Translations under genes and position numbers: made by a program | Part shown: piece after piece, positions 4,581 through 60,021 of the stretch | Position numbering within the stretch: position 1 is the first letter of the stretch | Layout of the letters: each line of letters starts with the position of its first letter | The notes under the pieces: model-generated | What the model saw: only the letters and a program-made list of their open reading frames with translations | What the model was told of the DNA's origin: nothing | The model's database searches: none | Assembly: GCA_012521555.1 (NCBI GenBank) | Contig: JAAYMC010000024.1 | Location: 1,437-65,436, forward strand | Source: Clostridiales bacterium | GTDB taxonomy: Bacteria; Bacillota; Clostridia; Oscillospirales; Oscillospiraceae | DNA: 64,000 nucleotides | Direction: 5' to 3'

Positions 4581-5840
4581 ATGGAGACGACGAAGACCCT
4601 CGGCATTTATATTCATATACCGTTTTGCATGGCAAAATGCGCCTACTGCGACTTTTACTCCCTGGCCGACCGCGAGAAGCTCATGCCGGATTTCCAGCAT
4701 GCCCTTCTCCGCCACATCAAGGAGTACGCGCCGCAGCTGGACGGGTACCTGATCGACACCGTCTATTTCGGCGGCGGCACGCCCAGTTTCTACGGGAGCG
4801 ACCGCCTCATCCGCATTTTCAACGCCCTGAAAAAATACGGCAACGTCCTTATCGACTCGGAGGTGACCGTCGAGGTCAACCCCGGCACCATCACGAAGGC
4901 GGATATGCAGCGCCTCATCCGCACCGGGTTTAACCGCATATCCATCGGCGTGCAGACGTCGGACGACGGGCTGCTCAAAAGCCTGGGCCGCCGCCACACC
5001 TTCGCCGACGCGGAGGAGACGGTGAAAAACGCGCGCGAGGCCGGGTTTAAAAACGTGAGCATCGACCTCATCTACGGCCTGCCGTCCCAGACGCGCGACG
5101 CGTGGGCGGAGACGCTCAACCGCGCCGCCGCGCTCAAGCCGGACCACATCTCGTGTTACGGCCTGAAAATTGAGGAGGGGTCGCAGCTTTATATCTACAA
5201 GAACTCGCCCTTCATCCCGGACGACGACGCGCAAGCCGATATGTACCTGTACGCGGTGGAGGCCCTCGAGCGGTTCGGCTACAGGCAGTACGAAATCTCA
5301 AACTTCGCCCGCCGCGGGTTTGAGTCGAAGCACAACCTCAAGTACTGGATGGGGGACGAGTACCTCGGCTTCGGCCCGGGGGCGCACTCCTACATCGGCG
5401 GCAAACGGTACAACTTCATCGCCGACCTCGAGCGGTATATCGAAAACGTCCTCAGCGGCAAGTCTGTGGTGGACTTAAGCGAGGAAATCACCGATTTCGA
5501 GCGCGCGAGCGAGTACCTCATGCTCCGGCTTCGCACGACGCGGGGCATCTCCGAGGAGGAGTACTACGAGATCTACCCGTGCAGCATGGAAAAGGCGGTC
5601 GAGCTCTTCAAGCAGTATGAAAAGCACGGCTGGGCGCAGTTTAAGGACGGGCGGTGGAGCTTCACGCCCGAGGGCTTTTTACGCTCGAACATCCTCATCG
5701 GCCAGCTCCTCGAGACGCAGACGAAGCAGCGCTCGCTGATGACGCGCCCGTGGGAGCAGCCGGAAGACGCCCTGCTGCGCTCGCAGCTGACGCTGTTCGA
5801 CTTAAAGCCCAAGGAAGTGCAGATGTTCCGCGGGATTTAG
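4581..5840 (+). CDS. hemW: radical SAM heme chaperone HemW (HemN-like)
   Basis: IYIHIPFCMAKCAYCDF (CxxxCxxC), YFGGGTPS, YEISNFA, HNLKYW, YLGFGPGAHS. Confidence 0.92.
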   Translation: METTKTLGIYIHIPFCMAKCAYCDFYSLADREKLMPDFQHALLRHIKEYAPQLDGYLIDTVYFGGGTPSFYGSDRLIRIFNALKKYGNVLIDSEVTVEVNPGTITKADMQRLIRTGFNRISIGVQTSDDGLLKSLGRRHTFADAEETVKNAREAGFKNVSIDLIYGLPSQTRDAWAETLNRAAALKPDHISCYGLKIEEGSQLYIYKNSPFIPDDDAQADMYLYAVEALERFGYRQYEISNFARRGFESKHNLKYWMGDEYLGFGPGAHSYIGGKRYNFIADLERYIENVLSGKSVVDLSEEITDFERASEYLMLRLRTTRGISEEEYYEIYPCSMEKAVELFKQYEKHGWAQFKDGRWSFTPEGFLRSNILIGQLLETQTKQRSLMTRPWEQPEDALLRSQLTLFDLKPKEVQMFRGI

Positions 5841-7860: not shown

Positions 7861-8430
7861 ATGAGTTTTATTGAAATTATTGCGCTCGCATTTGGCCTTG
7901 CGATGGACGCCGTCGCCGTCGCAATCTGCAAGGGGCTTGGCGCCGTGCGCCTGACGTGGAAGAATACCCTGACCGTCGGCGCGTGGTTCGGCGGCTTTCA
8001 GGCCCTTATGCCGGCGCTCGGCTTCCTCCTCGGCACGACGTTTGCCGGCTACATCAAGGCGTATTCCGGATGGATTGCCTTTGTGCTCCTCGCCGTCATC
8101 GGCGTGAACATGATCCGCGAAGCCATTTCGGGAGAAGGCGCGGAGGACCACCCCGCCGTCTGCTCCTTTTCGGCGCGCTCGATGTTTCTGCCCGCCGTCG
8201 CCACCAGCATCGACGCTCTCGCCGTGGGCGTGACGTTTTCGTTCCTCGACGTCGATATCCTGCCCGCGGCGGCCCTCATCGGCGTGATGACGTTTATCCT
8301 CTCCGGCATCGGCGTGCGCATCGGGCACTTCTTCGGCAAGCGCTTTCAAAAGCCCGCGGAAATCACGGGCGGGTGCATCCTCTGCCTGCTGGGCGTGAAA
8401 ATCCTCCTTGAGCAGCTCGGCGTGCTGTAA
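7861..8430 (+). CDS. mntP: manganese efflux pump MntP family
   Basis: Two repeats GLAMDAVAVAI and ATSIDALAVG; six hydrophobic segments. Confidence 0.9.
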   Translation: MSFIEIIALAFGLAMDAVAVAICKGLGAVRLTWKNTLTVGAWFGGFQALMPALGFLLGTTFAGYIKAYSGWIAFVLLAVIGVNMIREAISGEGAEDHPAVCSFSARSMFLPAVATSIDALAVGVTFSFLDVDILPAAALIGVMTFILSGIGVRIGHFFGKRFQKPAEITGGCILCLLGVKILLEQLGVL

Positions 8431-38549: not shown

Positions 38550-39779
38550 CTACTCATTTTTTGCCCTTGCGACGCCGCGCTTTAATAGCACCTGAAACAC
38601 GACGGAGAGGATCGGCAGCACGCAGCCTAAAAGCACCGCCGCGCGCAGGCCGAACTGTTCCGCCGATATGGAAAAGCTGTCGGGCACAAGGGGAGCGAGC
38701 AAATCCGCCGCCGTTCCCACCAGGAATGAGGAGATGGCGGTGCCCAGGTCGCCCGCCGCGGCGAGCAGGCCGAAAAGGGCGGCGCCCGCCGCGGGCAGGG
38801 CGGAAGCGGCCACCACGAGCGTCTCCGGCCAGAGCAGGCAGGTGGCGGCGCCGGCAACCCAGCAGGCGAAAACGGTCAGCGCCGTCGAAGGGGAAAGGGC
38901 GACGACAAGATAACACGCCGCCGCCGCGGCCGAGCCGTAAATCATCAGCTTATGGGTGTCCCACTTTTTGCCGAAGATGCTGAAAACGAGCCGCCCCAGG
39001 CCGAAGCACAGGGCAAATCCGCACAGGCCCAGCAGGTCCCCCGCCAGCTTCGACATGCCGGTGCCCCGCTCAAGGAAGGTGGAAATCCACTGCATCAGGG
39101 TAATTTCCGCGGCGGCGCCGAAGAAAATGGCCAAAAACGAGAGGATGAAGACCCTGTTTTTAAGAAGCGATCTTGTCTTCATCAGCTGTTCCTGCGGCTT
39201 CGTGGAGGGCAGGGGCGCGCCCCAGAACTGGATGAGGTTAATAAGCGGCAGGATCGACCAGATCAGGACGATAAGCTGCCATCCGCGGGCGCCGAAGACC
39301 TTGAGCAGGAGGGTCGTCCCCGCGATGCCCGCAATCATCCCCCAGGCGAGGAAGGAGTGGAGAATCGCCATGGACGACTCCTTGTGTTCGCCCGGCAGGC
39401 CGTTGATGATGGGGCTGAGAATGACTTCCCAAATCCCAAGCGAAGCGGAGAAGATGGCGGTGGCGACGCACAGGCCGGCAAACGTAAAGCGCCCCGCCCA
39501 GCTGGGAACCGACGCGAAGAGGGCAAGGCCTAGAAAACACGTCAGGGGAGCAAGGCGCGAGAAAGCCTTGAATCCGAACCGGTCGAGCGGCTTTGAAAAG
39601 ACCACGTCCGCGAGGAGCTGAAAGACGAAATTGATAAACACCAGCGTCCCCAGCTGGGTGTATGTAAACCCGTAGAGGGTCTGCAGGGGGACGAAGAGGA
39701 CGGCCGTCAAATTCATGACGATGCCCTGGGTAAAGTACGAAACGTAGCAGGCAAGTTTTGTCCGCAAGAAGCTGCGCAC
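38550..39779 (-). CDS. MFS transporter (sugar/FucP-like, substrate unknown)
   Basis: About 12 hydrophobic segments, PLDRFG loop motif, FFGAAAE. GTG start after AAGGAG. Confidence 0.85.
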   Translation of the reverse strand: MRSFLRTKLACYVSYFTQGIVMNLTAVLFVPLQTLYGFTYTQLGTLVFINFVFQLLADVVFSKPLDRFGFKAFSRLAPLTCFLGLALFASVPSWAGRFTFAGLCVATAIFSASLGIWEVILSPIINGLPGEHKESSMAILHSFLAWGMIAGIAGTTLLLKVFGARGWQLIVLIWSILPLINLIQFWGAPLPSTKPQEQLMKTRSLLKNRVFILSFLAIFFGAAAEITLMQWISTFLERGTGMSKLAGDLLGLCGFALCFGLGRLVFSIFGKKWDTHKLMIYGSAAAAACYLVVALSPSTALTVFACWVAGAATCLLWPETLVVAASALPAAGAALFGLLAAAGDLGTAISSFLVGTAADLLAPLVPDSFSISAEQFGLRAAVLLGCVLPILSVVFQVLLKRGVARAKNE

Positions 39780-39911
39780 GATTGAGCGTCTCCTTTTCCT
39801 TGTGTAATGGTCAGATGAACGATATAATTATATCGCAGCCGAACCGACTAAAATAGAAAAGAATACTCATAAAATATAACAATATTACCACTTTGCAAAG
39901 GAATGGGCGGC

Positions 39912-40817
39912 ATGAACCGGCAGGCCATCTCAACGGACAGCTCCCTGCAGTCCCTCAATGATTACGGCGGATACGATTTCCCGATGCGGCTTTATCTGGA
40001 CGATTTTCGCAGTCTCCCTCTCGGGCACATCAACTGGCACTGGCACAAGCAGCTTGAGTTTTCCTGCGTGCTGCGGGGCGAAATTGAATACAGCGTGGGG
40101 GAGGCGAAAATCCGGCTGGGGCAAGGAGAGGGTGTTTTCATCAACGCCGGGCGGCTGCACGCAATAAGGCCCGCCGCCGGCCATGAAAACGCGATGGCCT
40201 TTTCCCTCGTTTTCAGCCCGGCAATCCTGTCTTACGGCGTGGAGAGCATCGTTTACCAAAAGTACGTCCTGCCGGTCGCGCAGGACAGGCGCCTGCACTG
40301 CTTAACGCTCAGACAGGACATCCCCTGGCAGAGGGAGATGCTGGCGCTGCTGGCTCAGCTTTACGGCCTTTTTCAGGAGCGGCCCTACGGGTTTGAGCTT
40401 TCCGCCCAGTCGCTTCTGGTGCAGGCCTGGCGGGAGATGGTTCTCCACCTTAACCGGAATACGGCGGAAAAGGGCGGCGCGGGAGACGCGAGCGAAGAGA
40501 GGCTCAAGCGCATGATCTCCTGCATTCAGGCAAATTTCAGCGAGGCTCTGACCCTTCAGCAGATTGCGTCGGCCGCCAGCGTGAGCAAAAGCGAGTGCAT
40601 CCGCTGCTTTAAGAAGCGGCTTGGCGTCACGCCGGTTGAATACCTGATTGAGTACCGCCTGTCAAAGGCGATGGAGTATTTGGACGGGACGGATTTGCCC
40701 GTTGCGGAAATCGGCCAGCGCTGCGGCTTTGAAAGCGCCAGCTATTTCGCGAAAACCTTCAGGCGCCGGACGGGGCTGAGCCCCTCCGGCTACCGGAAAA
40801 GGCGCGCGTCCGGCTGA
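39912..40817 (+). CDS. AraC family transcriptional regulator (cupin sensor plus HTH)
   Basis: WHWHKQLEF cupin; C-terminal LQQIA...ECIRCFKK...GFESASYFAKTFRRRTGLSPSGYRK. Confidence 0.93.
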   Translation: MNRQAISTDSSLQSLNDYGGYDFPMRLYLDDFRSLPLGHINWHWHKQLEFSCVLRGEIEYSVGEAKIRLGQGEGVFINAGRLHAIRPAAGHENAMAFSLVFSPAILSYGVESIVYQKYVLPVAQDRRLHCLTLRQDIPWQREMLALLAQLYGLFQERPYGFELSAQSLLVQAWREMVLHLNRNTAEKGGAGDASEERLKRMISCIQANFSEALTLQQIASAASVSKSECIRCFKKRLGVTPVEYLIEYRLSKAMEYLDGTDLPVAEIGQRCGFESASYFAKTFRRRTGLSPSGYRKRRASG

Positions 40818-41011
40818 AAACAAACCGAAGGCTCCATGACGCGTTTGCGGCATGGAGCCTGGGTGTTTTGGCGGAATTTGCCTAATTTTAGGTATAAGAT
40901 GATGATATTTTTGCATTTTACAAAGAAAAAACAGGCTGGTAACATTTGATTGCGGGTACCAGAAAGGTATACAATGAAAGAAAGACCGCACATAAAAGGG
41001 GGCTTACAGGG

Positions 41012-43465
41012 ATGTATCAGTTCAGGCCGGTGACAGAACGCATGGAGCGGATGCACCAGCTCATTCGGGACCGCGTCATTCAGACAGACTCTGAGATTGC
41101 GCTGATTATCACGCGTGTTTTTCAGGAGAACGAAAACCTCGTCCCGATGATTCGCCGTGCGAAGGTCCTCAAAGCGATTTGCGAGGAGATGACCGTTCGC
41201 GTTGAAGATTTTGAGATGCTTGTGGGCAGTATCAGCCGGTACTTTTGCGGCCGGAGCGTTTTCCCCGACTGGGAAGGCGCCGGCCTCGTGCCGCACTTTG
41301 TGGAATCCGGCGTCTGGACAATGCGGGAAGACGGGCGGTACCATAACCCCGACGACGAGATGGTGCGCCTGTGCATCGCGCCGGAGGATTTGGAGAAGCT
41401 CAAGTCGATCCAGCCCTACTGGAAAGGCAGGACGTACAACGACATCGCCTCGGCGTGGCTGCCGCCCGGATACGAGGAGCTTGCCCGCATGGAAGTGTCC
41501 GCCACGAAAAAGGGGATGCCCGTCCTCATGATGCCGTCCGGGCACCTCACGCCGGGCTTTAAGAAGATCATCGACTTAGGTTACGGGGCCATCCGCCGGC
41601 AGGCGCAGGAATGGCTCGACGCGCACTACAACAACCTCATGGGCGACGACGCGACGAAAGCGATGTTTTACACCGCCGTCGTGATGTGCTGCGACGCGGC
41701 GTCGACGCTGCTGCGGCGCTACGCGAAAAATTGCCTTGAGAAGGCCGCCGTCTGCGCGGATCCAAAGCGCAGGGCGGAGCTTCAGTCCATGGCGGACAGC
41801 CTGGCGTGGATCTCCGAAAACCCCTGCCGCACCTTCCGCGAGGCCTGCCAGGCGGCCATCACATACCAGTACATCCTGCGTTTAAGCTACATCAACGACG
41901 TCAGCTCCTTCGGCCGGTTCGACCAGTATACGTGGCCGTACCTGAAGAAGGATCTGGAGGAAGGGCGCCTGACGATGGACGAGGCGCAGGAAATCGTCGA
42001 CTGCTTCTTCCTCAAGGTCAACTCCATGTACTACGGCGGCGCCGGCGACGGGAAGCTCGCGGCCATCATCGGCATCGGCAACACCTACCTGCACACGACC
42101 ATCGGCGGCGTCGACCCGAAGACGGGGGAGGACGCGTCCAACCCCGTCACCTACATGGTTTTAGAGAGCCTGTCCCGCCTGAGCCTGCACGACCCGACGA
42201 TTTCGCTGCGTGTGAGCAGCAAAACGCCGGATGCGCTGTGGAACCTCGCGCTGCTCACGTCGACGAAAGTCGGCGGCCTGCCGCTGTTCCAGAACGACGA
42301 CGTCATCATCCCCGGCATCGTGCGCGAGCTGGGCTTTACGCTGGAGGACGCGCGGGATTACGCCATTATCGGCTGCCAGGAGATCACCGGCTCCGGCAAC
42401 GACTATTCCGCGGCCAACGGCGTCTGCCCGCCCCACTCCTCAATCCACTACAGCGCCGTCCTGGCGACGGCCCTCAACAACGGCAAAAACCCCATGAACG
42501 GGGAGCAGTGCTCCATCAAGACGGGGTATCTCTACGAGATGAAGTCCATAGAGGAAGTCAAGGAGGCATGGCTGAAGCTTGCCAAGTACTTCCTCAAGGC
42601 GCAGGTGTCCCTCAACAACTACTTAGAGTACATCGTCCAGTACCACACGCCGCACCCGATGCTCTCCATGTCCATCGAAGGGTGCATGGAGTCAGGCAAG
42701 GACTGCACGTGGGGCGGCGCCAAATACAACTCGTACGGCGGCACCGCGACGGGCCTTGCCACCGTGGCCGACTCCCTCACGGCCATCCGGTACATGGTCT
42801 TTGACAAGAAACTGTGCACCGCCCGCGAGATGTACGACGCCATCATGGCCAACTGGGAAGGCTACGAAGAGCTCCAGCAGAGAATCATCAGCGAAGTGCC
42901 CCACTTCGGCAACGCCGACCCGTACGCCGACGAGATGATGGCGTGGGTCATAAACGCCTACTACGAGGCCTGCAGGGAGTGCTACTCCAGCCGGGCGAAG
43001 GTTTTCAAGGCGGGGCTCTACGGCGCGGCCGACCACGTCGGGCAGGGCTACACGACGTGGGCCACGCCCGACGGGCGCAAGGCCGGCACGCCGATTGCCG
43101 ACGCGGCTTCCCCCGTCCAGGGGCGCGACACAAACGGGCCGACGGCCGTGTTCGTCTCGTCCCTCTGCTACGACCACTCCAAGTTCATGGACGGCGTGTG
43201 CCTCAACGTGAGACTGCACCCGACGGTTTTAAGCCGAGAAGACGGCATCTATAAGCTGCGCGACATGGTCAAAGCGTACATGGCCGCCGGCGGCGCGGAA
43301 GCGCAGTTTAACGTCGTGTCCACCGAGACGCTGCGCGCCGCGCAGGCAAAGCCCGACGAATACCGCAACCTCGTCGTCCGCATCGCCGGCTACTCGGCCT
43401 ACTTCGTCGAGCTCACGCGCGACTGCCAGGACGACCTCATCTCCCGCACCGAAAATCTGCTCTAG
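41012..43465 (+). CDS. glycyl radical enzyme (PFL2/dehydratase-like, uncharacterised subfamily)
   Basis: 817 aa; GRFDQY, Cys loop AIIGCQE (42371-42382), ATPDGRKAG, glycyl loop VVRIAGYSAYF (Gly at 43388-43390). Confidence 0.92.
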   Translation: MYQFRPVTERMERMHQLIRDRVIQTDSEIALIITRVFQENENLVPMIRRAKVLKAICEEMTVRVEDFEMLVGSISRYFCGRSVFPDWEGAGLVPHFVESGVWTMREDGRYHNPDDEMVRLCIAPEDLEKLKSIQPYWKGRTYNDIASAWLPPGYEELARMEVSATKKGMPVLMMPSGHLTPGFKKIIDLGYGAIRRQAQEWLDAHYNNLMGDDATKAMFYTAVVMCCDAASTLLRRYAKNCLEKAAVCADPKRRAELQSMADSLAWISENPCRTFREACQAAITYQYILRLSYINDVSSFGRFDQYTWPYLKKDLEEGRLTMDEAQEIVDCFFLKVNSMYYGGAGDGKLAAIIGIGNTYLHTTIGGVDPKTGEDASNPVTYMVLESLSRLSLHDPTISLRVSSKTPDALWNLALLTSTKVGGLPLFQNDDVIIPGIVRELGFTLEDARDYAIIGCQEITGSGNDYSAANGVCPPHSSIHYSAVLATALNNGKNPMNGEQCSIKTGYLYEMKSIEEVKEAWLKLAKYFLKAQVSLNNYLEYIVQYHTPHPMLSMSIEGCMESGKDCTWGGAKYNSYGGTATGLATVADSLTAIRYMVFDKKLCTAREMYDAIMANWEGYEELQQRIISEVPHFGNADPYADEMMAWVINAYYEACRECYSSRAKVFKAGLYGAADHVGQGYTTWATPDGRKAGTPIADAASPVQGRDTNGPTAVFVSSLCYDHSKFMDGVCLNVRLHPTVLSREDGIYKLRDMVKAYMAAGGAEAQFNVVSTETLRAAQAKPDEYRNLVVRIAGYSAYFVELTRDCQDDLISRTENLL

Positions 43466-43530
43466 CGGATTTATGCCGCCAAAGACCGCAATATCATCCT
43501 CTTTGCCCGGAAACGAGGCTTTTTTGCCGG

Positions 43531-43563
43531 AAAGGGCGCCGCTGACAAAGCGGCGCCCTTTTT
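43531..43563 (+). terminator. intrinsic terminator after the GRE gene
   Basis: AAAGGGCGCCGCT-GACAA-AGCGGCGCCCTTTTT. Confidence 0.8.
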
Positions 43564-43731
43564 GTATTTTCTTTAGGAGGAGGGAGACTGACAGTACAAA
43601 TTTGAGCGCAGTCATTCCGACTAAAAATACTACAAATTAATTATGAGTAATTAATATCAATTAGGCAAATACGAAATTTTGTAAAAATTCTTGCAATTTT
43701 ATAACTATCCGATGGACATTCGGCTTTGAGA

Positions 43732-43760
43732 TTGACAAAAATTTATCAAACTTCTATCCT
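43732..43760 (+). promoter_or_regulatory. sigmaA promoter of the hbd operon with an overlapping Rex-like palindrome
   Basis: TTGACA-N17-TATCCT; TTGACAA-AAAT-TTATCAA (43732-43749) covers the -35 box. Confidence 0.55.
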
Positions 43761-43859: not shown

Positions 43860-44747
43860 ATGGAAAAGGTATTTATCGTCGGCGGAGGCATTATGGGAAC
43901 CGGCATGGCGCAGGTGTTTGCCCAGAACGGTTTTGAGACGATTCTCCGCGTCCGGAATCTCGGCGGCGGCCGGAAAGAGGAGCTCGCGGCCGGGTTTGAA
44001 AAGAGCTTTGGAAAGCTTGTCAAAAAAGGCAAGATGACCGAAGACGAGGCGTGGGCGGCGCTCGCCAGGATTACATACACGGAAAATCTGGCGGACGCAA
44101 AGGACTGCGATCTCGTCATCGAGGCGATTGTTGAGGACCTGGAGCTGAAGAAGGAGCTGTTTGCGGAGCTCGACGCGATCTGCAAACCTGAAACGATTCT
44201 GGCGACGAACACGTCGTCCCTGTCCATCACGGCCATCGCTCAGGCGACAGGCAGAGGCGACAAGTGCATCGGCATGCACTTCTTCAACCCCGTTCCGGTG
44301 ATGGCGCTCGTCGAGGTCATCAAGGGCGCGCACACCACGGACGAGACGAAGGACAAGGTGTTTGAGATTGTCAGGGCCATCGGCAAAACGCCTGTGCTCG
44401 TCAACGAGGCGCCGGGCTTCGTCGTCAACCGCCTGCTTGTCCCCATGATCAACGAGGCCGTTTTCTGCCTGCAGGAAGGCGTCGCCACCGCGGAAGATAT
44501 CGACAACATCATGCGGCTCGGCGCGAACCACCCGATGGGCCCCCTCGCGCTGGGCGACCTCATCGGCCTGGACGTGTGCCTGAACATCATGGACGCGCTC
44601 TACGAGGAGACGCGCGACTCCAAGTACAGGGCGTGCACGCTGCTGAGGAAGATGGTCGCGGCGGGACTGCTCGGGCGCAAGACGGGCCGCGGCTTCTTCG
44701 ACTACACATCGTCCGAGACGCAGAAAGAGAACCAAAAAGTGGGATAA
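43860..44747 (+). CDS. hbd: 3-hydroxybutyryl-CoA dehydrogenase family
   Basis: GGGIMG, IEAIVE, ATNTSSLSIT, GMHFFNPVPVM, GANHPMGP. Confidence 0.92.
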   Translation: MEKVFIVGGGIMGTGMAQVFAQNGFETILRVRNLGGGRKEELAAGFEKSFGKLVKKGKMTEDEAWAALARITYTENLADAKDCDLVIEAIVEDLELKKELFAELDAICKPETILATNTSSLSITAIAQATGRGDKCIGMHFFNPVPVMALVEVIKGAHTTDETKDKVFEIVRAIGKTPVLVNEAPGFVVNRLLVPMINEAVFCLQEGVATAEDIDNIMRLGANHPMGPLALGDLIGLDVCLNIMDALYEETRDSKYRACTLLRKMVAAGLLGRKTGRGFFDYTSSETQKENQKVG

Positions 44748-44763
44748 AACCTAGGAGGAAACA

Positions 44764-45906
<1,143 letters not shown>

Positions 45907-45931
45907 CCCTTAAGCTTAAAGGAGTGAAATT

Positions 45932-46705
45932 ATGAACGTCCTTTACGAAGTGAAAGACCACGTCGCCGTCCTTACCATAAACAGGCCTGAGGTCCTCAAC
46001 GCGCTGAATCTCGACGTGTTTGCGGAAATAAAAGACGCCGTCGAGAAGGCGGAGCGGGACGAGGACGTCTATGTGGTTGTGATTACCGGCGCGGGGCGCG
46101 CCTTCGTTGCCGGCGCGGATATTAAACAGATGAAGGATCTCGGCCCCATGGAGGCGCGCCACTTCGGCGAGTTCGGCAACGAAGCGCTTTATAAGATCGA
46201 AACGCTCACGAAGCCCGTCATCGCCGCCGTCAACGGCTACGCCCTCGGCGGCGGGTGCGAGCTGGCCTGCGCGTGCGACATCCGCATCGCCAGCGACCGC
46301 GCCAAGTTCGGCCAGCCCGAGGTGGGGCTCGGCATTATCCCCGGCGCGGGCGGGACGGTGCGGCTGCCCCGCATCGTCGGCGCCGCGAAGGCGAAGGAGC
46401 TCATCTTCACGGGGCGCATCATCGACGCGCAGGAGGCGCTGCGCATCGGCCTCGTCAGCGACGTCGTCCCCGCCGAGTCGCTCATGGAGAAGGTCATGTC
46501 CCTCGCCAAGGAGATTGCGGCCAACGCGCAGATTGCCGTGCGTCAGGCGAAGGCGTCGATCAACAACGCGCTGCAGTGCGACGTTCAGTCGGCCCTGAAG
46601 TTTGAGGCGCAGGCGTTTGCCGTCTGCTTCTCGACGGAAGACCAGAAAGACGCCATGACGGCTTTTGTCAACAAAAGCAAGGTCACGGCATTTAAGAATA
46701 AATAA
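45932..46705 (+). CDS. crt: enoyl-CoA hydratase (crotonase)
   Basis: NRPEVLNALN, FVAGADI, GGGCEL, FGQPEVGLG. Confidence 0.92.
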   Translation: MNVLYEVKDHVAVLTINRPEVLNALNLDVFAEIKDAVEKAERDEDVYVVVITGAGRAFVAGADIKQMKDLGPMEARHFGEFGNEALYKIETLTKPVIAAVNGYALGGGCELACACDIRIASDRAKFGQPEVGLGIIPGAGGTVRLPRIVGAAKAKELIFTGRIIDAQEALRIGLVSDVVPAESLMEKVMSLAKEIAANAQIAVRQAKASINNALQCDVQSALKFEAQAFAVCFSTEDQKDAMTAFVNKSKVTAFKNK

Positions 46706-46733
46706 TGGCTAATCCACCAAAGGAGTCTGCTCA

Positions 46734-47522
46734 ATGAACATCATTGTCTGTATCAAACAGGTGCCGGATACGACGGAAGTCAAGCTCGACCCGGTGACCA
46801 ACACGCTGATTCGGGAAGGCGTCCCCTCCATTATAAACCCCGACGACAAGGCCGGCATTGAAGCCGCGCTTCGCATAAAGGAGACGCACGGCGCGCACGT
46901 TACCGTCGTCTCCATGGGCCCCGCGCAGGCGGACAAGGCGCTGCGCGAGGCTCTCGCCATGGGCTGCGACGAGGCCGTCCTGCTCTCGGACAGGGCTTTC
47001 GGCGGCGCCGACACGTGGGCGACGTCCTCGACGATCGCCGGCGCGCTGAAGAAGATGAAGTTCGACCTCGTCATCTGCGGCCGCCAGGCCATCGACGGCG
47101 ACACGGCCCAGGTCGGCCCGCAGCTGGCCGAGCACCTCGGCATCCCGCAGGTCAGCTACGTCGAAGACCTGAAAATCGAGGGCGACAAGGTCATCGCAAG
47201 GCGGCAGTTTGAGGACAGGTACCACATCATCGAAGTGAAGATGCCCTGCCTGCTCACGACGCTGTCGGAGCTTAACAAGCCGAGATACATGTCCGTCGCC
47301 GGCGTGTTCGACGCGTACCGCGAGAAGGAAGTGCGCGTCATGACGCTGGAAGACATTAAGGATACCGTCGACGTGGCGAACATCGGCCTGAAAGGCTCGC
47401 CCACGCGCGTGAAGAAGTCCTTTACGAAGACGGCCAAGGGCGCCGGCACGAAGTACGAGCTCGAGCCGGACGAAGCCGTCAAGGTCATCATGGAAAAACT
47501 GGCCCAAAAGTGCCTCATTTAA
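46734..47522 (+). CDS. etfB: electron transfer flavoprotein beta subunit
   Basis: VCIKQVPDT, GADTWATS, GRQAIDGDTAQVGP. Confidence 0.96.
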   Translation: MNIIVCIKQVPDTTEVKLDPVTNTLIREGVPSIINPDDKAGIEAALRIKETHGAHVTVVSMGPAQADKALREALAMGCDEAVLLSDRAFGGADTWATSSTIAGALKKMKFDLVICGRQAIDGDTAQVGPQLAEHLGIPQVSYVEDLKIEGDKVIARRQFEDRYHIIEVKMPCLLTTLSELNKPRYMSVAGVFDAYREKEVRVMTLEDIKDTVDVANIGLKGSPTRVKKSFTKTAKGAGTKYELEPDEAVKVIMEKLAQKCLI

Positions 47523-47534
47523 GGAGATAAGGAT

Positions 47535-48542
47535 ATGAGCGAGAGCAAGAATGTCTTTGTATTTTGCGAGCAAAGGGACGGCCTGATCGCCAAGGTCTCC
47601 ATCGAACTGATTGGCAAAGGGCGTGAGCTTGCCGACGCGCTGGGCCAGAAAGTCGTCGCCGTTTTGCTGGGGCACAACATCAAGGATAAGGCGCAGCTTC
47701 TCATCGACCACGGGGCGGACGAAGTCCTCGTCGTCGACCACGAGATGCTCGCCGAATACGTCACGGAGCCTTACGCCAAAGCGATGACGCACGTCATCAG
47801 GACGTACAGGCCTGAGATTCTCCTCTACGGCGCCACCGCCATCGGCCGCGACCTCGCGCCGCGCATCGCCGCGCGCATCCACACGGGCCTGACGGCCGAC
47901 TGCACGGGGCTCGAGATCGACCCGGAGACGAAGCTGCTGCTCATGACGCGCCCGGCCTTCGGCGGCAACATCATGGCGACCATCGTCTGCGAAAACCACA
48001 GGCCCCAGATGGCCACCGTCCGCCCCGGCGTGATGAAGGCGCTTGACCGGATGGACAGAACCGGCACCGTCACGGAAGTGCCTGTAGACTTTAAGCCTGA
48101 GGACATGAACGTCACCATCCGCTCCGTCGTCCGCGAGACGAAGCATAAGACCGACATCACCGAGGCGAAAATCCTCGTCTCCGGCGGCCGCGGCCTCGGC
48201 AAGCCCGAGGGCTTTGAGATGCTGAAAGAGCTCGCTGACGCCCTCGGCGGCGACATCTCCTCGTCGAGAGCGGGCGTCGACGCCGGCTGGCAGCCGAAGG
48301 ACAGGCAGGTCGGCCAGACGGGCAAGACCGTCCGCCCGAACCTGTACATCGCCTGCGGCATCTCCGGCGCCATCCAGCACCTTGCGGGCATGGAGTCCTC
48401 GGAATACATCATCGCCATCAACAAGGACGCCGACGCGCCCATTTTCGACGTGGCGGACTTAGGGATTGTGGGCGACGTGTACGCCATCGTCCCGAAGCTC
48501 ACGGAAGCCGTCCGCAAGTACAAGGAGGCCGGCCGCCTCTAA
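47535..48542 (+). CDS. etfA: electron transfer flavoprotein alpha subunit
   Basis: [34 protein letters not shown]. Confidence 0.96.
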
Positions 48543-48629
48543 GCGGACGCCTCCTCATACAGAAGAAAATTACGGCTACAATAAATGCGGCCGGCTTTTA
48601 GACCAAGGGAGAGTACAGGGAGACAGAGC

Positions 48630-49535
48630 ATGCTGAAATCTTTTGAAGAAATAAAGGCGCGACTGGGCGGATATGAGCAGAAAAAGCGCATCGGCGTCGT
48701 CTGCGCTCAGAACGAGCACACGCTCGACGCCGTCATGCTGGCCGCGCGGGAAAACCTTGTGGAGCCGGTTCTCATCGGCAAAAAGGGCGAGATAGAGCGG
48801 CTCCTGAGCAATATGGGCGACAAACCCGGCGACATAGAAATCATCGACCTGGATGAGCCGGAAGCGTGCGCCGCCGAAGCGGCGCGGCTTGTGAGGGAAG
48901 GGCGGCTTGACTGCATCATTAAGGGCAACATCGAGACGGGCGTCATGATGAAGGTCCTCGTCAGCCGCGAGCAGGGGATCCGGGAGAGCAAGACGCTCTC
49001 GCACATCTCGTTTTTCGAGTCGCCGTACTACCACAAGATGTTCGCCATGACGGACGGCGCCCTGCTTGTCTACCCCACGGTGGAGCAGAAGCGCGATGCG
49101 ATTGAAAACGCCGTGCGCGCCTTCCACAAGCTGGGGATTGAGGAGCCGAAAGTCGCCGTTCTCGCCGCGGTGGAGCATGTCAACCCCAAGATGAAGGAGA
49201 CCGTCGAGGCGGCGGAGCTGAAGAAGATGTGGGAAGAGGGCGCCTTTTCCCGCTGCATCGTGGAAGGGCCGATTTCCTACGACCTTGCGATGCAGAAAGA
49301 CGCCGCCGAGATTAAAAAATTCGACAGCCCCGTCGCCGGAGACGCGGACATTCTCGTCGTGCCGGACATCGCAACCGGCAACATTCTCCTCAAAGCGCTG
49401 AGCGGGACGGGCGGCGCGAAATTTGCCGGCACAATTATCGGCGCGCAGGTGCCGGTTATCGTCACGTCGCGCTCCATGCCGATGCGGGACAAGTACCTGT
49501 CCATCGTGCTCACCGCCGTCATCGGAAAAATGTAA
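48630..49535 (+). CDS. ptb: phosphate butyryltransferase family acyltransferase
   Basis: VAVLAAVEHVNPKM, EGPISYDLA, VAGDADILVVP, PVIVTSRS. Confidence 0.85.
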   Translation: MLKSFEEIKARLGGYEQKKRIGVVCAQNEHTLDAVMLAARENLVEPVLIGKKGEIERLLSNMGDKPGDIEIIDLDEPEACAAEAARLVREGRLDCIIKGNIETGVMMKVLVSREQGIRESKTLSHISFFESPYYHKMFAMTDGALLVYPTVEQKRDAIENAVRAFHKLGIEEPKVAVLAAVEHVNPKMKETVEAAELKKMWEEGAFSRCIVEGPISYDLAMQKDAAEIKKFDSPVAGDADILVVPDIATGNILLKALSGTGGAKFAGTIIGAQVPVIVTSRSMPMRDKYLSIVLTAVIGKM

Positions 49536-49550
49536 GAGGGGGGCTGCCTG

Positions 49551-50669
49551 TTGAAGACGTATCGCATTCTCGCCATCAACCCCGGCTCCACCTCGACGAA
49601 AGTGGCGCTGTTTGAAAACGACAAGGTTATCTTTCGCGTCAACATCGAGCACAACATGGAGGAACTCAACAAGTTCCCCGAAGTGTCCGACCAGAAGCCG
49701 TACCGCCTCGAGAAAATCAGGGAGGTTTTAAAGGAGCACGGCGTCGATCTAGCGTCGATAGACGCCTTCGTCGGCCGCGGCGGCGGGCAGGAGGCCATGG
49801 AGGGCGGCACGTACCGCGTCAACGACCTCGCCTACGAACACGCCCGCATCGGGTACAGGCTCGTGCACCCGTGCATCCTCGGCTCGCAGCTCGCCCGCGA
49901 CCTGGGCGACCAGTACGGCAAGCCGTCCTTCTTCGTCAACCCACCGTGCGTGGACGAGCTGGAAGACGTCGCGCGCGTGTCCGGCATGAAGGAGATTCTC
50001 CGCCGGCAATACGTCCACGCCCTCAACCAGAAGGAAGTCGCCAAGCGCTTTGCCGAGTCCATCGGCAAGCGGTACGAGGACATAAACCTCATCGTCTGCC
50101 ACATCGGCGGCGGGCTGTCCGTCACGGCGCACCGCCGCGGGCGCATGGTGGACTCCAACGACGCCCTCGGAAGCACCGGCCCGTTTTCGCCGACGCGCAG
50201 CGGCGACGTGTCCGCCATCGGGCTTATGCGCATGTGCTTTTCGGGCAAGTACACCGAGCAGGATATTTACAACAAAATCACGAAAAACGGCGGCCTCGTC
50301 GATTACCTCGGCACGAACGACGTCCGCGAAGTGAAGGCCCGCATCGCCAGGGGCGACAAATACGCGCGGCTCATCCTCGACGCCATGTACTACCAGATCA
50401 AGAAGGAAATCGGCGCGATGAGCGTCGTTCTGGAAGGGCAGGTGGAGGCGATTATTCTCACGGGCGGCGTCAGCTACGACGAGGACCTCGTCGAGAGCGT
50501 GCGGAAATCGTGCTCGTTTATCGCCCCCGTCGTCGCCATGCCGGGCGAATTTGAGATGGAAGCCCTCGCCAGAGGCGCGCTCGCCGTCCTCACGGGTGAG
50601 GAGGAGGCAAAGGAGTACACCGGCGTCTCCCCCATAAACCCCGAGCTCTTCGGCGACGCAATCTGGTAA
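49551..50669 (+). CDS. buk: butyrate kinase family
   Basis: ILAINPGSTSTK, HALNQK, HIGGGLSV, GPFSP, PGEFEMEAL. TTG start. Confidence 0.88.
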   Translation: MKTYRILAINPGSTSTKVALFENDKVIFRVNIEHNMEELNKFPEVSDQKPYRLEKIREVLKEHGVDLASIDAFVGRGGGQEAMEGGTYRVNDLAYEHARIGYRLVHPCILGSQLARDLGDQYGKPSFFVNPPCVDELEDVARVSGMKEILRRQYVHALNQKEVAKRFAESIGKRYEDINLIVCHIGGGLSVTAHRRGRMVDSNDALGSTGPFSPTRSGDVSAIGLMRMCFSGKYTEQDIYNKITKNGGLVDYLGTNDVREVKARIARGDKYARLILDAMYYQIKKEIGAMSVVLEGQVEAIILTGGVSYDEDLVESVRKSCSFIAPVVAMPGEFEMEALARGALAVLTGEEEAKEYTGVSPINPELFGDAIW

Positions 50670-58596: not shown

Positions 58597-58719
58597 ATGC
58601 CAAGGCGGGGGAACACGCACCCCCGCCGCATTTTTCTTGTTTTCCCCGCACGTTATAACCCCTCGTCCCGCCAAAGCGGCTTTTTAGCACCATCGAGCGA
58701 CCGACTGGAACGGAACGAC

Positions 58720-60021
58720 ATGAGCGCTGTCATCAAATCGATTGCAAAGGGGAGCCCCTGCGACGGACGCCGCATTGCGCCTGGGGACCGCCTTGTGAAA
58801 ATCAACGGGCACAGAATACGCGACGTGCTCGACTACAAATACTATTCAGCCGAAGCCTGCCTGCTGCTTGAGTTGCACACAGCGGAGCAGGCTATTCGCC
58901 TTGTCCGGATTTACAAACGCGAGGAGGAAGACCTCGGGCTGGAGTTTACGTCCTACCTCATGGACGCGCCGCGCGCGTGCGTCAACCGCTGCATTTTCTG
59001 CTTTGTCGACCAGCTGCCGCGCGGCATGCGCAAGACGCTCTATTTTAAGGACGACGACGTGCGGCTGAGCTTCCTGCAGGGCAATTACGTCACGCTGACG
59101 AATCTCACGGAGCGGGATATAAGGCGCATCATCGCGATGCGCATCTCGCCGCTGAACGTCTCCGTCCACTCGACGGACCCGGCCCTGCGCAGCTTTATGC
59201 TCGGCGTGGGGCACATCGGCGCGGGGCTTGACGCGCTGCGCCGCTTTCAGGACGCGGGCATCCGGATGAACTGCCAGATCGTCTGCTGCCCCGGCGTCAA
59301 CGACGGCGCGCACCTGCAGCGCACGATGGAGGACCTCGCGGCGATGCACCCGTCCGTTATGAGCGTGTCCGTCGTCCCCGTGGGGCTGACGAAGCACCGC
59401 GAGGGGCTTTTCCCATTAGAGCCGTTCCGCGCGGAAAACGCGCTGGAGACGGTCCGGCAGGTGGAGCGGTTTGCGCGGCTGTGCAAGGTCCGGCTCGGGA
59501 CGAATTTTGTCTTTCCCGCCGACGAGTTTTATGTGAAGGCGGGCCTTCCCATCCCACCGGACGCGTTTTACGAAGACTACCCGCAGCTTGAAAACGGCGT
59601 GGGGCTCCTGCGCCTTTTAAAAACGCAGTTTGACGCGGCGCTGCCGGAAATATCTCAGGCGTCGGACAAGCCCTTTTCCATCGCGACGGGGCTTGCCGCG
59701 CTGGAGTGGATCAAAGGGCTTGCCGGCGAGGCGAAGGGGAAATTTCCGCAGATAAATGTAAGCGTCTTCGGCATTGTCAACGACTTTTTCGGCGATACTG
59801 TGGATGTGGCGGGCCTCATCACGGGGCGCGACCTTATCAGTCAGCTGCGCGGCAAAGACCTCGGCGAGCGCCTTCTCATCGCGCGCAACATGCTGCGGCA
59901 CGGCGAGACCGTCTTCCTCGACGACACGACGGTCGAGGACGTGGAAAAGGCCCTCGGCGTGCCCGTCCGCGTTGTCGAGCAGGACGGGGCGGACCTCGCC
60001 CGCGCGCTGTGCGGCAACTAG
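58720..60021 (+). CDS. DUF512 / PDZ-associated radical SAM-like protein
   Basis: N-terminal PDZ-like segment, CVNRCIFCFVDQ, FKDDDVRLSFLQGNY, YPQLENGVG. Confidence 0.88.
   Translation: MSAVIKSIAKGSPCDGRRIAPGDRLVKINGHRIRDVLDYKYYSAEACLLLELHTAEQAIRLVRIYKREEEDLGLEFTSYLMDAPRACVNRCIFCFVDQLPRGMRKTLYFKDDDVRLSFLQGNYVTLTNLTERDIRRIIAMRISPLNVSVHSTDPALRSFMLGVGHIGAGLDALRRFQDAGIRMNCQIVCCPGVNDGAHLQRTMEDLAAMHPSVMSVSVVPVGLTKHREGLFPLEPFRAENALETVRQVERFARLCKVRLGTNFVFPADEFYVKAGLPIPPDAFYEDYPQLENGVGLLRLLKTQFDAALPEISQASDKPFSIATGLAALEWIKGLAGEAKGKFPQINVSVFGIVNDFFGDTVDVAGLITGRDLISQLRGKDLGERLLIARNMLRHGETVFLDDTTVEDVEKALGVPVRVVEQDGADLARALCGN

Follow-up and report, generated by a model that had tools for sequence, protein, structure and literature searches.

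A widespread clade of glycyl radical enzymes with a GCQE cysteine loop, one member of which is encoded beside a probably separate MFS-AraC gene pair in a Clostridiales genome

Glycyl radical enzymes (GREs) give anaerobes access to chemistry that is difficult by other routes. To our knowledge, every newly assigned GRE clade so far has opened a new gut or environmental pathway, with choline, hydroxyproline, sulfonates and anhydro-sugars as examples. A Cys-x-Glu (CXE) motif defines the 1,2-eliminase and isomerase classes of the superfamily, in which whole clades are still unassigned according to a review of June 2026 (PMC13450708). Here we describe a GRE of 817 residues with a GCQE cysteine loop, encoded in a stretch of 64,000 nucleotides, the window, from a Clostridiales bacterium of the Oscillospiraceae (contig JAAYMC010000024.1 of assembly GCA_012521555.1). 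The gene follows that of an AraC-family regulator, which is itself divergent from a gene for a transporter of the major facilitator superfamily (MFS). The original prediction, made from the sequence, joined the three genes into a catabolic module around an uncharacterised eliminase. A check of open reading frames (ORFs) and peptides recovered all three genes, at the positions predicted, and every motif that had been quoted.

The closest described enzyme is the B12-independent glycerol dehydratase of Clostridium butyricum (DhaB1; 1R8W/1R9D), which is both the best PDB sequence match (420 bits, ~30% identity) and the top structural match (TM-score 0.87/0.90). The two proteins have in common the fold, the glycyl motif, the Cys-x-Glu loop and the equivalents of His164, Tyr339 and Tyr640 of the dehydratase. 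By contrast, Val434 of the dehydratase is an invariant Gln in the GCQE clade, variable residues stand in place of its His281 and Ser282, its Asp447 is lost within an insertion of 4-5 residues, and neither an activase nor a 1,3-propanediol dehydrogenase adjoins the window GRE. The 1,2-propanediol dehydratases of Roseburia inulinivorans (5I2A/5I2G) and of the GRM3 type (9RCO-9RCR) display the same GH motif, CXE loop and fold (TM 0.87-0.88). They differ in being only 28-30% identical; the window also lacks microcompartment genes, and the residues specific to the GCQE clade are polar rather than hydrophobic.

The remaining CXE-type enzymes are no closer. The hydroxyproline-type GREs HypD (6VXC), HpyG (8ID1), HpzG (8IOF) and HplG (7VUA) carry the CXE loop, with Ile as the middle residue in HplG, and HypD aligns best with the C-terminal half of the window GRE (245 bits), but identities are 28-29% and no proline-pathway genes lie near the gene. 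CutC, IseG, IslA and HpsG share the loop and the overall fold, IseG with the non-Val loop GCTE, whereas Asp216 of CutC corresponds to His178 in the window GRE and no sulfonate-binding Arg pair is evident. YbiW and PflD, which open the ring of 1,5-anhydro-hexitol-6-phosphate, are similar in their CXE loop and fold (TM 0.85-0.88), and may also be so in their sugar-like polar substrate and in cleaving a C-O bond without partner enzymes in the same operon. Their identity to the window GRE is 26-27%, and the GCQE clade has no clade-specific basic residues to hold a phosphate.

The GRE scores below the cut-off of every NCBIfam equivalog for this superfamily. In bits, score over cut-off, the values are 436/1000 for HpfG and 455/1000 for HpsG (NF048009 and NF048011), 437.4/1100 for HypD (NF043068), 412.5/1050 for CutC (TIGR04394) and 401/1100 for indoleacetate decarboxylase; the PFL2/glycerol dehydratase subfamily model TIGR01774 gives 487/678. 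The model for pyruvate formate-lyase (TIGR01255) gives 119.6/994, and the loop reads C-Q-E in place of its Cys-Cys pair. An AlphaFold2 model computed from an alignment of 57 sequences (pLDDT 84.7, pTM 0.88) superimposes on 50 GRE structures with TM-scores of 0.81-0.89, and on glycerol dehydratase, the propanediol dehydratases, HpzG, HypD, CutC, YbiW, HplG, IseG and others with scores of 0.83-0.89 at 26-30% identity. By sequence and model, the GRE thus lies at much the same distance from each eliminase and isomerase GRE. The structure prediction proposed originally yields a confident GRE fold (TM 0.87-0.90 to eliminases) with unreliable active-site loops. Model confidence falls below 50 only in these loops, which may adopt conformations not shared with known GREs.

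The view of the protein as an uncharacterised GRE of the eliminase type is borne out by the ~30% identity to its nearest described relative, by scores below all equivalog cut-offs, by the retained CXE motif and by the literature. The protein does not cluster tightly with any characterised GRE. No description of the GCQE clade was found in papers or in bioRxiv preprints on "glycyl radical" since 2023, including searches by protein accession, nor in the literature on ether cleavage and PEG or on enoate reductases and dehydroxylation, and none of the characterised enzymes listed in PMC13450708 corresponds to it. The "TDR glycyl radical enzyme" of a polyphenol review was considered and is unrelated to the clade.

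Protein and genome searches returned hundreds of relatives at 56-90% identity. A clade alignment was built from 172 non-identical sequences, which share 49-100% identity (median 65%) with the query. All of them have the loop I-G-C-Q-E-[IV]-[TV]-G, and further invariant or nearly invariant positions are G177-H178, G354xGNTYxHTTxGG, S461-G-N-D-Y465, N469-G, P473-P474, G668-x-Y670, H675, Q678 and VVRIAG793. In a sequence library clustered at 50% identity, the clade formed essentially one cluster; its closest neighbours outside, at 38-43% identity, have loops of the GCIE or GCVEPGG type. The hosts include Papillibacter, Sporobacter and other Oscillospiraceae from rumen, termite gut and digesters, Blautia and further Lachnospiraceae, Acetobacterium, Sporomusa and Acetitomaculum. 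Outside these groups, members occur in Coriobacteriia (including Eggerthellaceae and Ellagibacter), Acidobacteriota, Desulfobacterales, Desulfatiglandales, Syntrophorhabdales and one metagenome-assembled genome (MAG) of Thermoleophilia. Acetobacterium paludosum, Sporomusa acidovorans and Acetitomaculum ruminis are carriers that can be cultivated. The clade spans at least five phyla, and its habitats include rumen, termite gut, digesters and peat.

GREs ~80% identical to the window protein are found in MAGs of Acidobacteriota, Desulfobacterales and Thermodesulfobacteriota (loci L010-L019 and L023 of our comparison), which implies recent transfer of the single gene across phyla. Against its nearest relative, locus L008 of a Papillibacter MAG, the GRE gene has a dN/dS of 0.094, and its dS of 0.62 equals that of the flanking PPDK gene, which argues for vertical inheritance under strong constraint. 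We regard the clade as very probably real and functional, and so far without an assigned reaction. These data also leave almost no room for the view that the gene is an inactive or decaying paralogue that serves no distinct function: the missing activase within 64 kb and the solitary position of the gene in most genomes would fit such a relic, but all catalytic motifs are intact, the gene evolves at the rate of PPDK, median identity is 65% across phyla and transcription is very high.

The GRE coding sequence (41012-43465, forward strand) has matches to the Pfam PFL-like domain (PF02901, 502.7 bits) and Gly_radical domain (PF01228, 96.6 bits), and the database cluster P0001 is nearly identical. 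Both hallmarks of the superfamily are present and conserved in all 172 sequences. The glycyl motif (RVxG[FWY] type) appears as RIAGYS (43379-43396, forward strand) within VVRIAG, with G793 as the predicted radical site, and C455 lies in IIGCQE. The Cys loop G454-C455-Q456-E457 together with a clade-specific extension, ITGSGNDYSAANGVCPP, occupies 42371-42433 on the forward strand; in the alignment to 1r8w, the extension contains an insertion of 4-5 residues relative to glycerol dehydratase. C455, Q456 and E457 are found in 172 of 172 sequences, and N463, D464 and Y465 in at least 94%. The C-Q-E triplet corresponds to the CXE motif. The claim that a Cys-x-Glu loop is typical of eliminase-type GREs stands, while the middle Val with which GCQE had been contrasted is not universal: it is Val in glycerol dehydratase, propanediol dehydratase, CutC, HypD and HpzG, Ile in HplG and Thr in IseG. 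On sequence, the Gln is a new variant at a position already known to vary.

His178 (codon at 41543-41545, forward strand; 172 of 172 sequences) aligns with His164 of glycerol dehydratase and His166 of propanediol dehydratase, the proposed general acid of these two enzymes; an Asp is found at the equivalent position of CutC in the PDB alignments. The segment GIGNTYLHTT (G354-T363; 42071-42100, forward strand) includes Tyr359, aligned with Tyr339 of glycerol dehydratase, together with N357, T358, H361 and T363, which are hallmarks of the GCQE clade. The strand YGAADHVGQ (Y670-Q678; 43019-43045, forward strand) contains Tyr670, aligned with Tyr640 of the dehydratase, and the invariant H675 and Q678. 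The three dehydratase equivalents H178, Y359 and Y670 are 98-100% conserved among the 172 members. The peptides noted originally as unusual, PSGHLTPG, INDVSSFGRFDQY, YYGGAGDGKLAAIIGIGNTY, and ITGSGNDYSAANGVCPPHS after GCQE, are all present, as is RIAGYS. Their distinctiveness holds only in part, as INDVSS varies within the clade itself, and both the GH of PSGHLTPG and GRFDQY are common to glycerol and propanediol dehydratases. The residue pair GD at 345-346 is an insertion confined to close relatives.

On balance, by slightly better than even chances, the conserved residues and the analogy with known CXE enzymes argue for C-O eliminase or isomerase chemistry. The reaction type, the residue roles and the substrate class proposed here are inferred from what is established for catalysis by CXE GREs (PMC13450708). 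The radical on Gly793 would be installed by a radical SAM activase whose gene lies at another site of the genome, from which it would pass to Cys455 as a thiyl radical. At a substrate carbon that bears a hydroxyl, the thiyl would take up a hydrogen; Glu457 would deprotonate this hydroxyl to give a ketyl radical, and His178 would protonate the vicinal leaving group. Breakage of the C-O bond would then result in a dehydration or in a ring- or ether-opening isomerisation, and the product radical would regain its hydrogen from Cys455. Invariant polar residues are predicted to surround the site (N357, T358, Y359, H361, T363, Q456, N463, D464, Y465, Y670, H675 and Q678), and no clade-specific Arg or Lys is found among the invariant residues. 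The loss of His281, Ser282 and Asp447 of glycerol dehydratase, combined with additional polar but no basic residues, suggests that the substrate is neutral, polyhydroxylated and of greater size than glycerol.

The start of the GRE was placed at ATG 41012 in preference to the mechanical TTG 40946, because a Shine-Dalgarno sequence (AAAGGGGG) lies 9 nt upstream, RNA contigs start at 40960-41000, and homologues are 815-817 residues long. A promoter scan located a sigma-70-type promoter, P1 (TTTACA-17-TAACAT; 40917-40945, forward strand), and a possible second one, P2 (TTGATT-18-TACAAT; 40946-40975, forward strand). The P1 hexamers are kept in the two nearest relatives, L008 and L102, where the spacers have diverged. 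Upstream, directly after the AraC stop, a hairpin with 14-nt arms of 93% complementarity and a 4-nt loop (40829-40860, forward strand) likely stops transcription between AraC and the GRE. Downstream, a terminator scan predicts a strong intrinsic terminator of the GRE transcript (43528-43573, forward strand), with a 16-bp stem containing 10 G-C pairs, followed by a T-run. No Rfam match of note, riboswitch or leader RNA, occurs between 38000 and 44200. In L008, a perfect palindrome, TGTCATCA-N5-TGATGACA, abuts the -35 element of the GRE (8072-8094 of that locus) and is a possible operator. The window keeps only its right half (40895-40910), at the edge of the MFS-AraC indel.

The GRE sequence is present in many metagenomes of anaerobic digesters, biogas plants and bioreactors and in at least 24 digester metatranscriptomes. 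We further analyzed the contigs of eight digester metatranscriptomes by word depth. The GRE reaches a depth of 40-300, equal to or above that of the flanking PPDK and hbd-bcd-crt-etfBA-ptb-buk genes. Contigs start at 40960/40961 in three runs and at 40993-41000 in three, several of them right beside adapter sequence; they end at ~43485-43508, and the next contigs begin at ~43780. These ends match the predicted promoter and terminator. No contig crosses 40765-40960 in six of the eight runs, and the depth of MFS and AraC is 0-14 in six runs (AraC 0-8 in most). In six of the eight, the depth of GRE RNA exceeds that of either neighbour by a factor of roughly 10-100. The neighbouring butyrate operon is complete in the window (hbd, bcd, crt, etfB, etfA, ptb and buk; 43860-50669); it is preceded by a promoter of its own at ~43732-43760, and its RNA is present in these metatranscriptomes too.

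The MFS coding sequence (38550-39779, reverse strand) specifies 409 residues with Pfam MFS_1 as the sole match (66.5 bits); it was taken for a sugar-type transporter, a label that finds no backing in the absence of any Sugar_tr match in Pfam and of any match to an NCBIfam model. The AraC-family regulator (39903-40817, forward strand; 304 residues) combines Cupin_2/AraC_binding and HTH_18 domains and reaches no NCBIfam equivalog cut-off. In the original prediction, a sugar, polyol or hydroxy acid enters through the MFS and is sensed by AraC; read as a module, AraC would in turn activate the GRE that degrades it. The genes are indeed adjacent, AraC and GRE are co-oriented, and the order PPDK-MFS-AraC-GRE is found again in one other related lineage, L102-L105 (identities in L102 of 84% for MFS, 61% for AraC and 87% for GRE), so that the trio is not unique to the window. 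Unrelated MFS, GPH or sugar-binding ABC genes also lie near some clade members (L004, L010, L058 and L071).

Against this view, each part is retained without the other. In L008, whose GRE is 90% identical and under strong selection at the same site, the order is PPDK-GRE-hbd, with 363 bp in place of the 2.6 kb that hold MFS and AraC. Conversely, L096/L097 display PPDK-MFS-AraC followed by unrelated genes and no GRE, and L098 and L107 contain divergent MFS-AraC pairs without GRE in mobile-element contexts, so that three of the five lineages in which AraC is paired with MFS are GRE-free. In total, MFS homologues at 58-84% identity occur without GRE, alone or with AraC, in six contexts, including positions among housekeeping genes with neither partner. 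No homologue of the window MFS or AraC was found in 80 other GRE loci of the clade, and AraC-type domains are not frequent among the immediate neighbours of clade members. A comparison of the MFS-AraC intergenic region with the region upstream of the GRE for a shared AraC operator gave only a 17-nt repeat of 76% identity, in the 5' untranslated region of the GRE, which was judged to be chance. In L098 (735-4868) and L107 (3219-6176), the pair is positioned beside recombinase, relaxase or TnpV genes, suggesting that it can move as a unit.

The persistent association is thus that of AraC with the divergent MFS gene, the GRE and the pair each being kept without the other. The trio is confined to two lineages and its RNA is decoupled in six of eight runs, contrary to the co-inheritance and co-expression expected of an AraC-controlled module. 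Together with the promoter and terminator of the GRE itself and the hairpin after AraC, these data make a single catabolic module unlikely, and with it the import and sensing of the GRE substrate by the two neighbours. A substrate common to the GRE and the MFS-AraC pair is likewise improbable on gene order and transcripts. AraC most likely regulates the divergent MFS gene, and we hold with good confidence that the GRE is independent of both; the pair would lie next to it through local synteny in a genus-level group. Given the order in L102-L105, a lineage-specific regulatory link between GRE and AraC may exist.

Elsewhere, clade members are mostly solitary genes, as judged from Pfam counts of immediate neighbours. 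All-against-all clustering of ORFs from 83 loci and Pfam counts for 120 immediate neighbours revealed no universal partner gene and only weak recurrences. OYE/FAD enoate-reductase-like proteins (12 loci), short-chain dehydrogenases (SDR; 12) and Fe-ADH (7) recur, as would be expected if the product were an aldehyde, a ketone or an enone; LysR regulators, ABC transporters and a weakly URO-D-like protein recur as well. The last, of ~330 residues with a weak match to PF01208, is positioned directly upstream of the GRE in L020 (7563-8546), L081 (8935-9960) and L067 (8863-9972); the URO-D fold is used by corrinoid methyltransferases in anaerobes. Twenty-odd loci carry two to four GRE paralogues, with tandem clusters in L024 (9177-21636), L025 (573-21100), L058, L067, L080 and L081. 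All GREs of these clusters are without an assigned reaction. The Blautia cluster reads, in order, SBP_bac_5 ABC transporter, PEP_mutase-like, SDR, GRE, GRE, OYE/FAD reductase, Fe-ADH, LysR, activase, 2-hydroxyacid dehydrogenase and a GRE with a GCVEP loop. Such companion GCVEP-loop GREs were considered as a functional anchor and set aside, as they too score below all NCBIfam cut-offs. In Sporomusa acidovorans (L004, 613-3029, reverse strand), a second GRE of 756 residues is followed by an overlapping 54-residue ORF with a glycyl radical domain, which represents either a frameshift or a split radical domain.

Overall, we favor, as the probable account of the locus, a functional and separately transcribed GRE of a distinct clade with C-O eliminase or isomerase chemistry, next to an MFS-AraC pair that forms a separate two-gene unit. 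Several findings weigh against it. A GRE activase is lacking in the 64-kb window, both by tblastn with the Sporomusa activase and by a CxxxCxxC scan, and a hidden Markov model of the activases adjacent to clade members gives a best E-value of 0.3 in the same window. Its two radical SAM genes (4581-5840 and 58597-60021) are HemN/HemW-like and Radical_SAM_2 with DUF512, respectively, and neither matches GRE activases; within the clade, an activase lies within 10 kb in 14 of 80 loci, among them that of the Sporomusa acidovorans orthologue WP_093794574.1, which has its activase gene beside it (L004, 8948-9901). The neighbours are heterogeneous, with 132 Pfam families among the 120 examined. His281 of glycerol dehydratase corresponds to D296 (D in 97 and P in 64 of 172 sequences), Ser282 to the variable V297, and Asp447 aligns with P474 and is not conserved, so that the analogy with diol dehydratases is only partial. 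The stretches where AlphaFold2 confidence drops below 50 (175-177, 353-359, 453-475 and 667-672) coincide exactly with the active-site loops, and the residue roles are thus read from the sequence alignment only. For clade members, the evidence on the reaction comes from sequence and models. As for the separate transcription, the trio does recur in L102-L105, the GRE exceeds MFS and AraC in depth by only about 2-5-fold in the two largest runs, and contig depth is a rough, poor measure of expression, although the pattern across runs is consistent.

A bolder form of the favored account, in which the GCQE clade performs a radical C-O cleavage done by no known GRE, with Gln456 as a catalytic residue, seems to us a long shot. 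The substrate would be abundant and of plant origin, and would undergo dehydration or have a ring or an ether opened. Speculative candidates are cyclitols such as quinate and shikimate, sugars in methylated or anhydro form, and beta-hydroxy ethers of the lignin type. Such an activity would explain the spread of the single gene across phyla, the enoate-reductase-like, SDR, Fe-ADH and URO-D-like neighbours, and the very high expression in digesters. It would also account for the hosts, which comprise acetogens, rumen and termite-gut Oscillospiraceae, polyphenol-transforming Coriobacteriia, peat Acidobacteriota, and aromatic-degrading Desulfatiglans and Syntrophorhabdales. The weaker form, that the substrate is simply one not yet known for GREs, is reasonably probable.

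An isozyme of the B12-independent glycerol or 1,2-propanediol dehydratases is the next reading to consider, and we rate it improbable as well. The best sequence and structure matches are indeed 1r8w for the former and 9rco/5i2g for the latter, the His, Glu, Cys and two Tyr of glycerol dehydratase are kept, and Fe-ADH genes adjoin some clade members as dhaT adjoins that enzyme. These resemblances lose their force in that identity is only ~30%, all eliminases score nearly alike with TM 0.83-0.89, and the GRE falls short of the TIGR01774 cut-off. In addition, the positions of His281 and Ser282 hold other, variable residues, Asp447 is lost in the clade-specific insertion, and a surplus of more than ten invariant polar residues hints at a larger ligand, while microcompartment genes, an adjacent activase and dhaT are all missing from the window.

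C-N or C-S lyase activity on an amino alcohol or a sulfonate, as in CutC, IslA or HpsG, is less probable still. The CXE motif is common to those enzymes, HpsG and HpfG are among the top NCBIfam equivalog matches, and the invariant D464 could serve to bind an ammonium group, as could D674, which most members have. The position of Asp216 in CutC, however, is occupied by His, no clade-specific Arg pair like the sulfonate clamp of IslA, IseG and HpsG is found among the invariant residues, scores are far under the cut-offs, and neither sulfite reductase, microcompartment nor amine-handling genes recur near clade members.

The favored account of a separately transcribed C-O eliminase or isomerase shifts the search for the substrate away from this locus: the MFS and AraC genes of the window are no dependable guide to it, and clues are better sought in the richer multi-GRE operons of Blautia, Acetobacterium, Sporomusa and Oscillospiraceae. 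The clade is a distinct subfamily of a well-known enzyme superfamily in which many clades are likewise without an assigned reaction. Its breadth, its apparent transfer across phyla and its very high expression set it apart from the average orphan GRE. It is compact, recognisable by its IGCQE loop and found in many anaerobic habitats, and transcription at the level of central metabolism in digesters indicates that the substrate is probably abundant. Assigning its reaction would thus fill a gap in anaerobic carbon flow.

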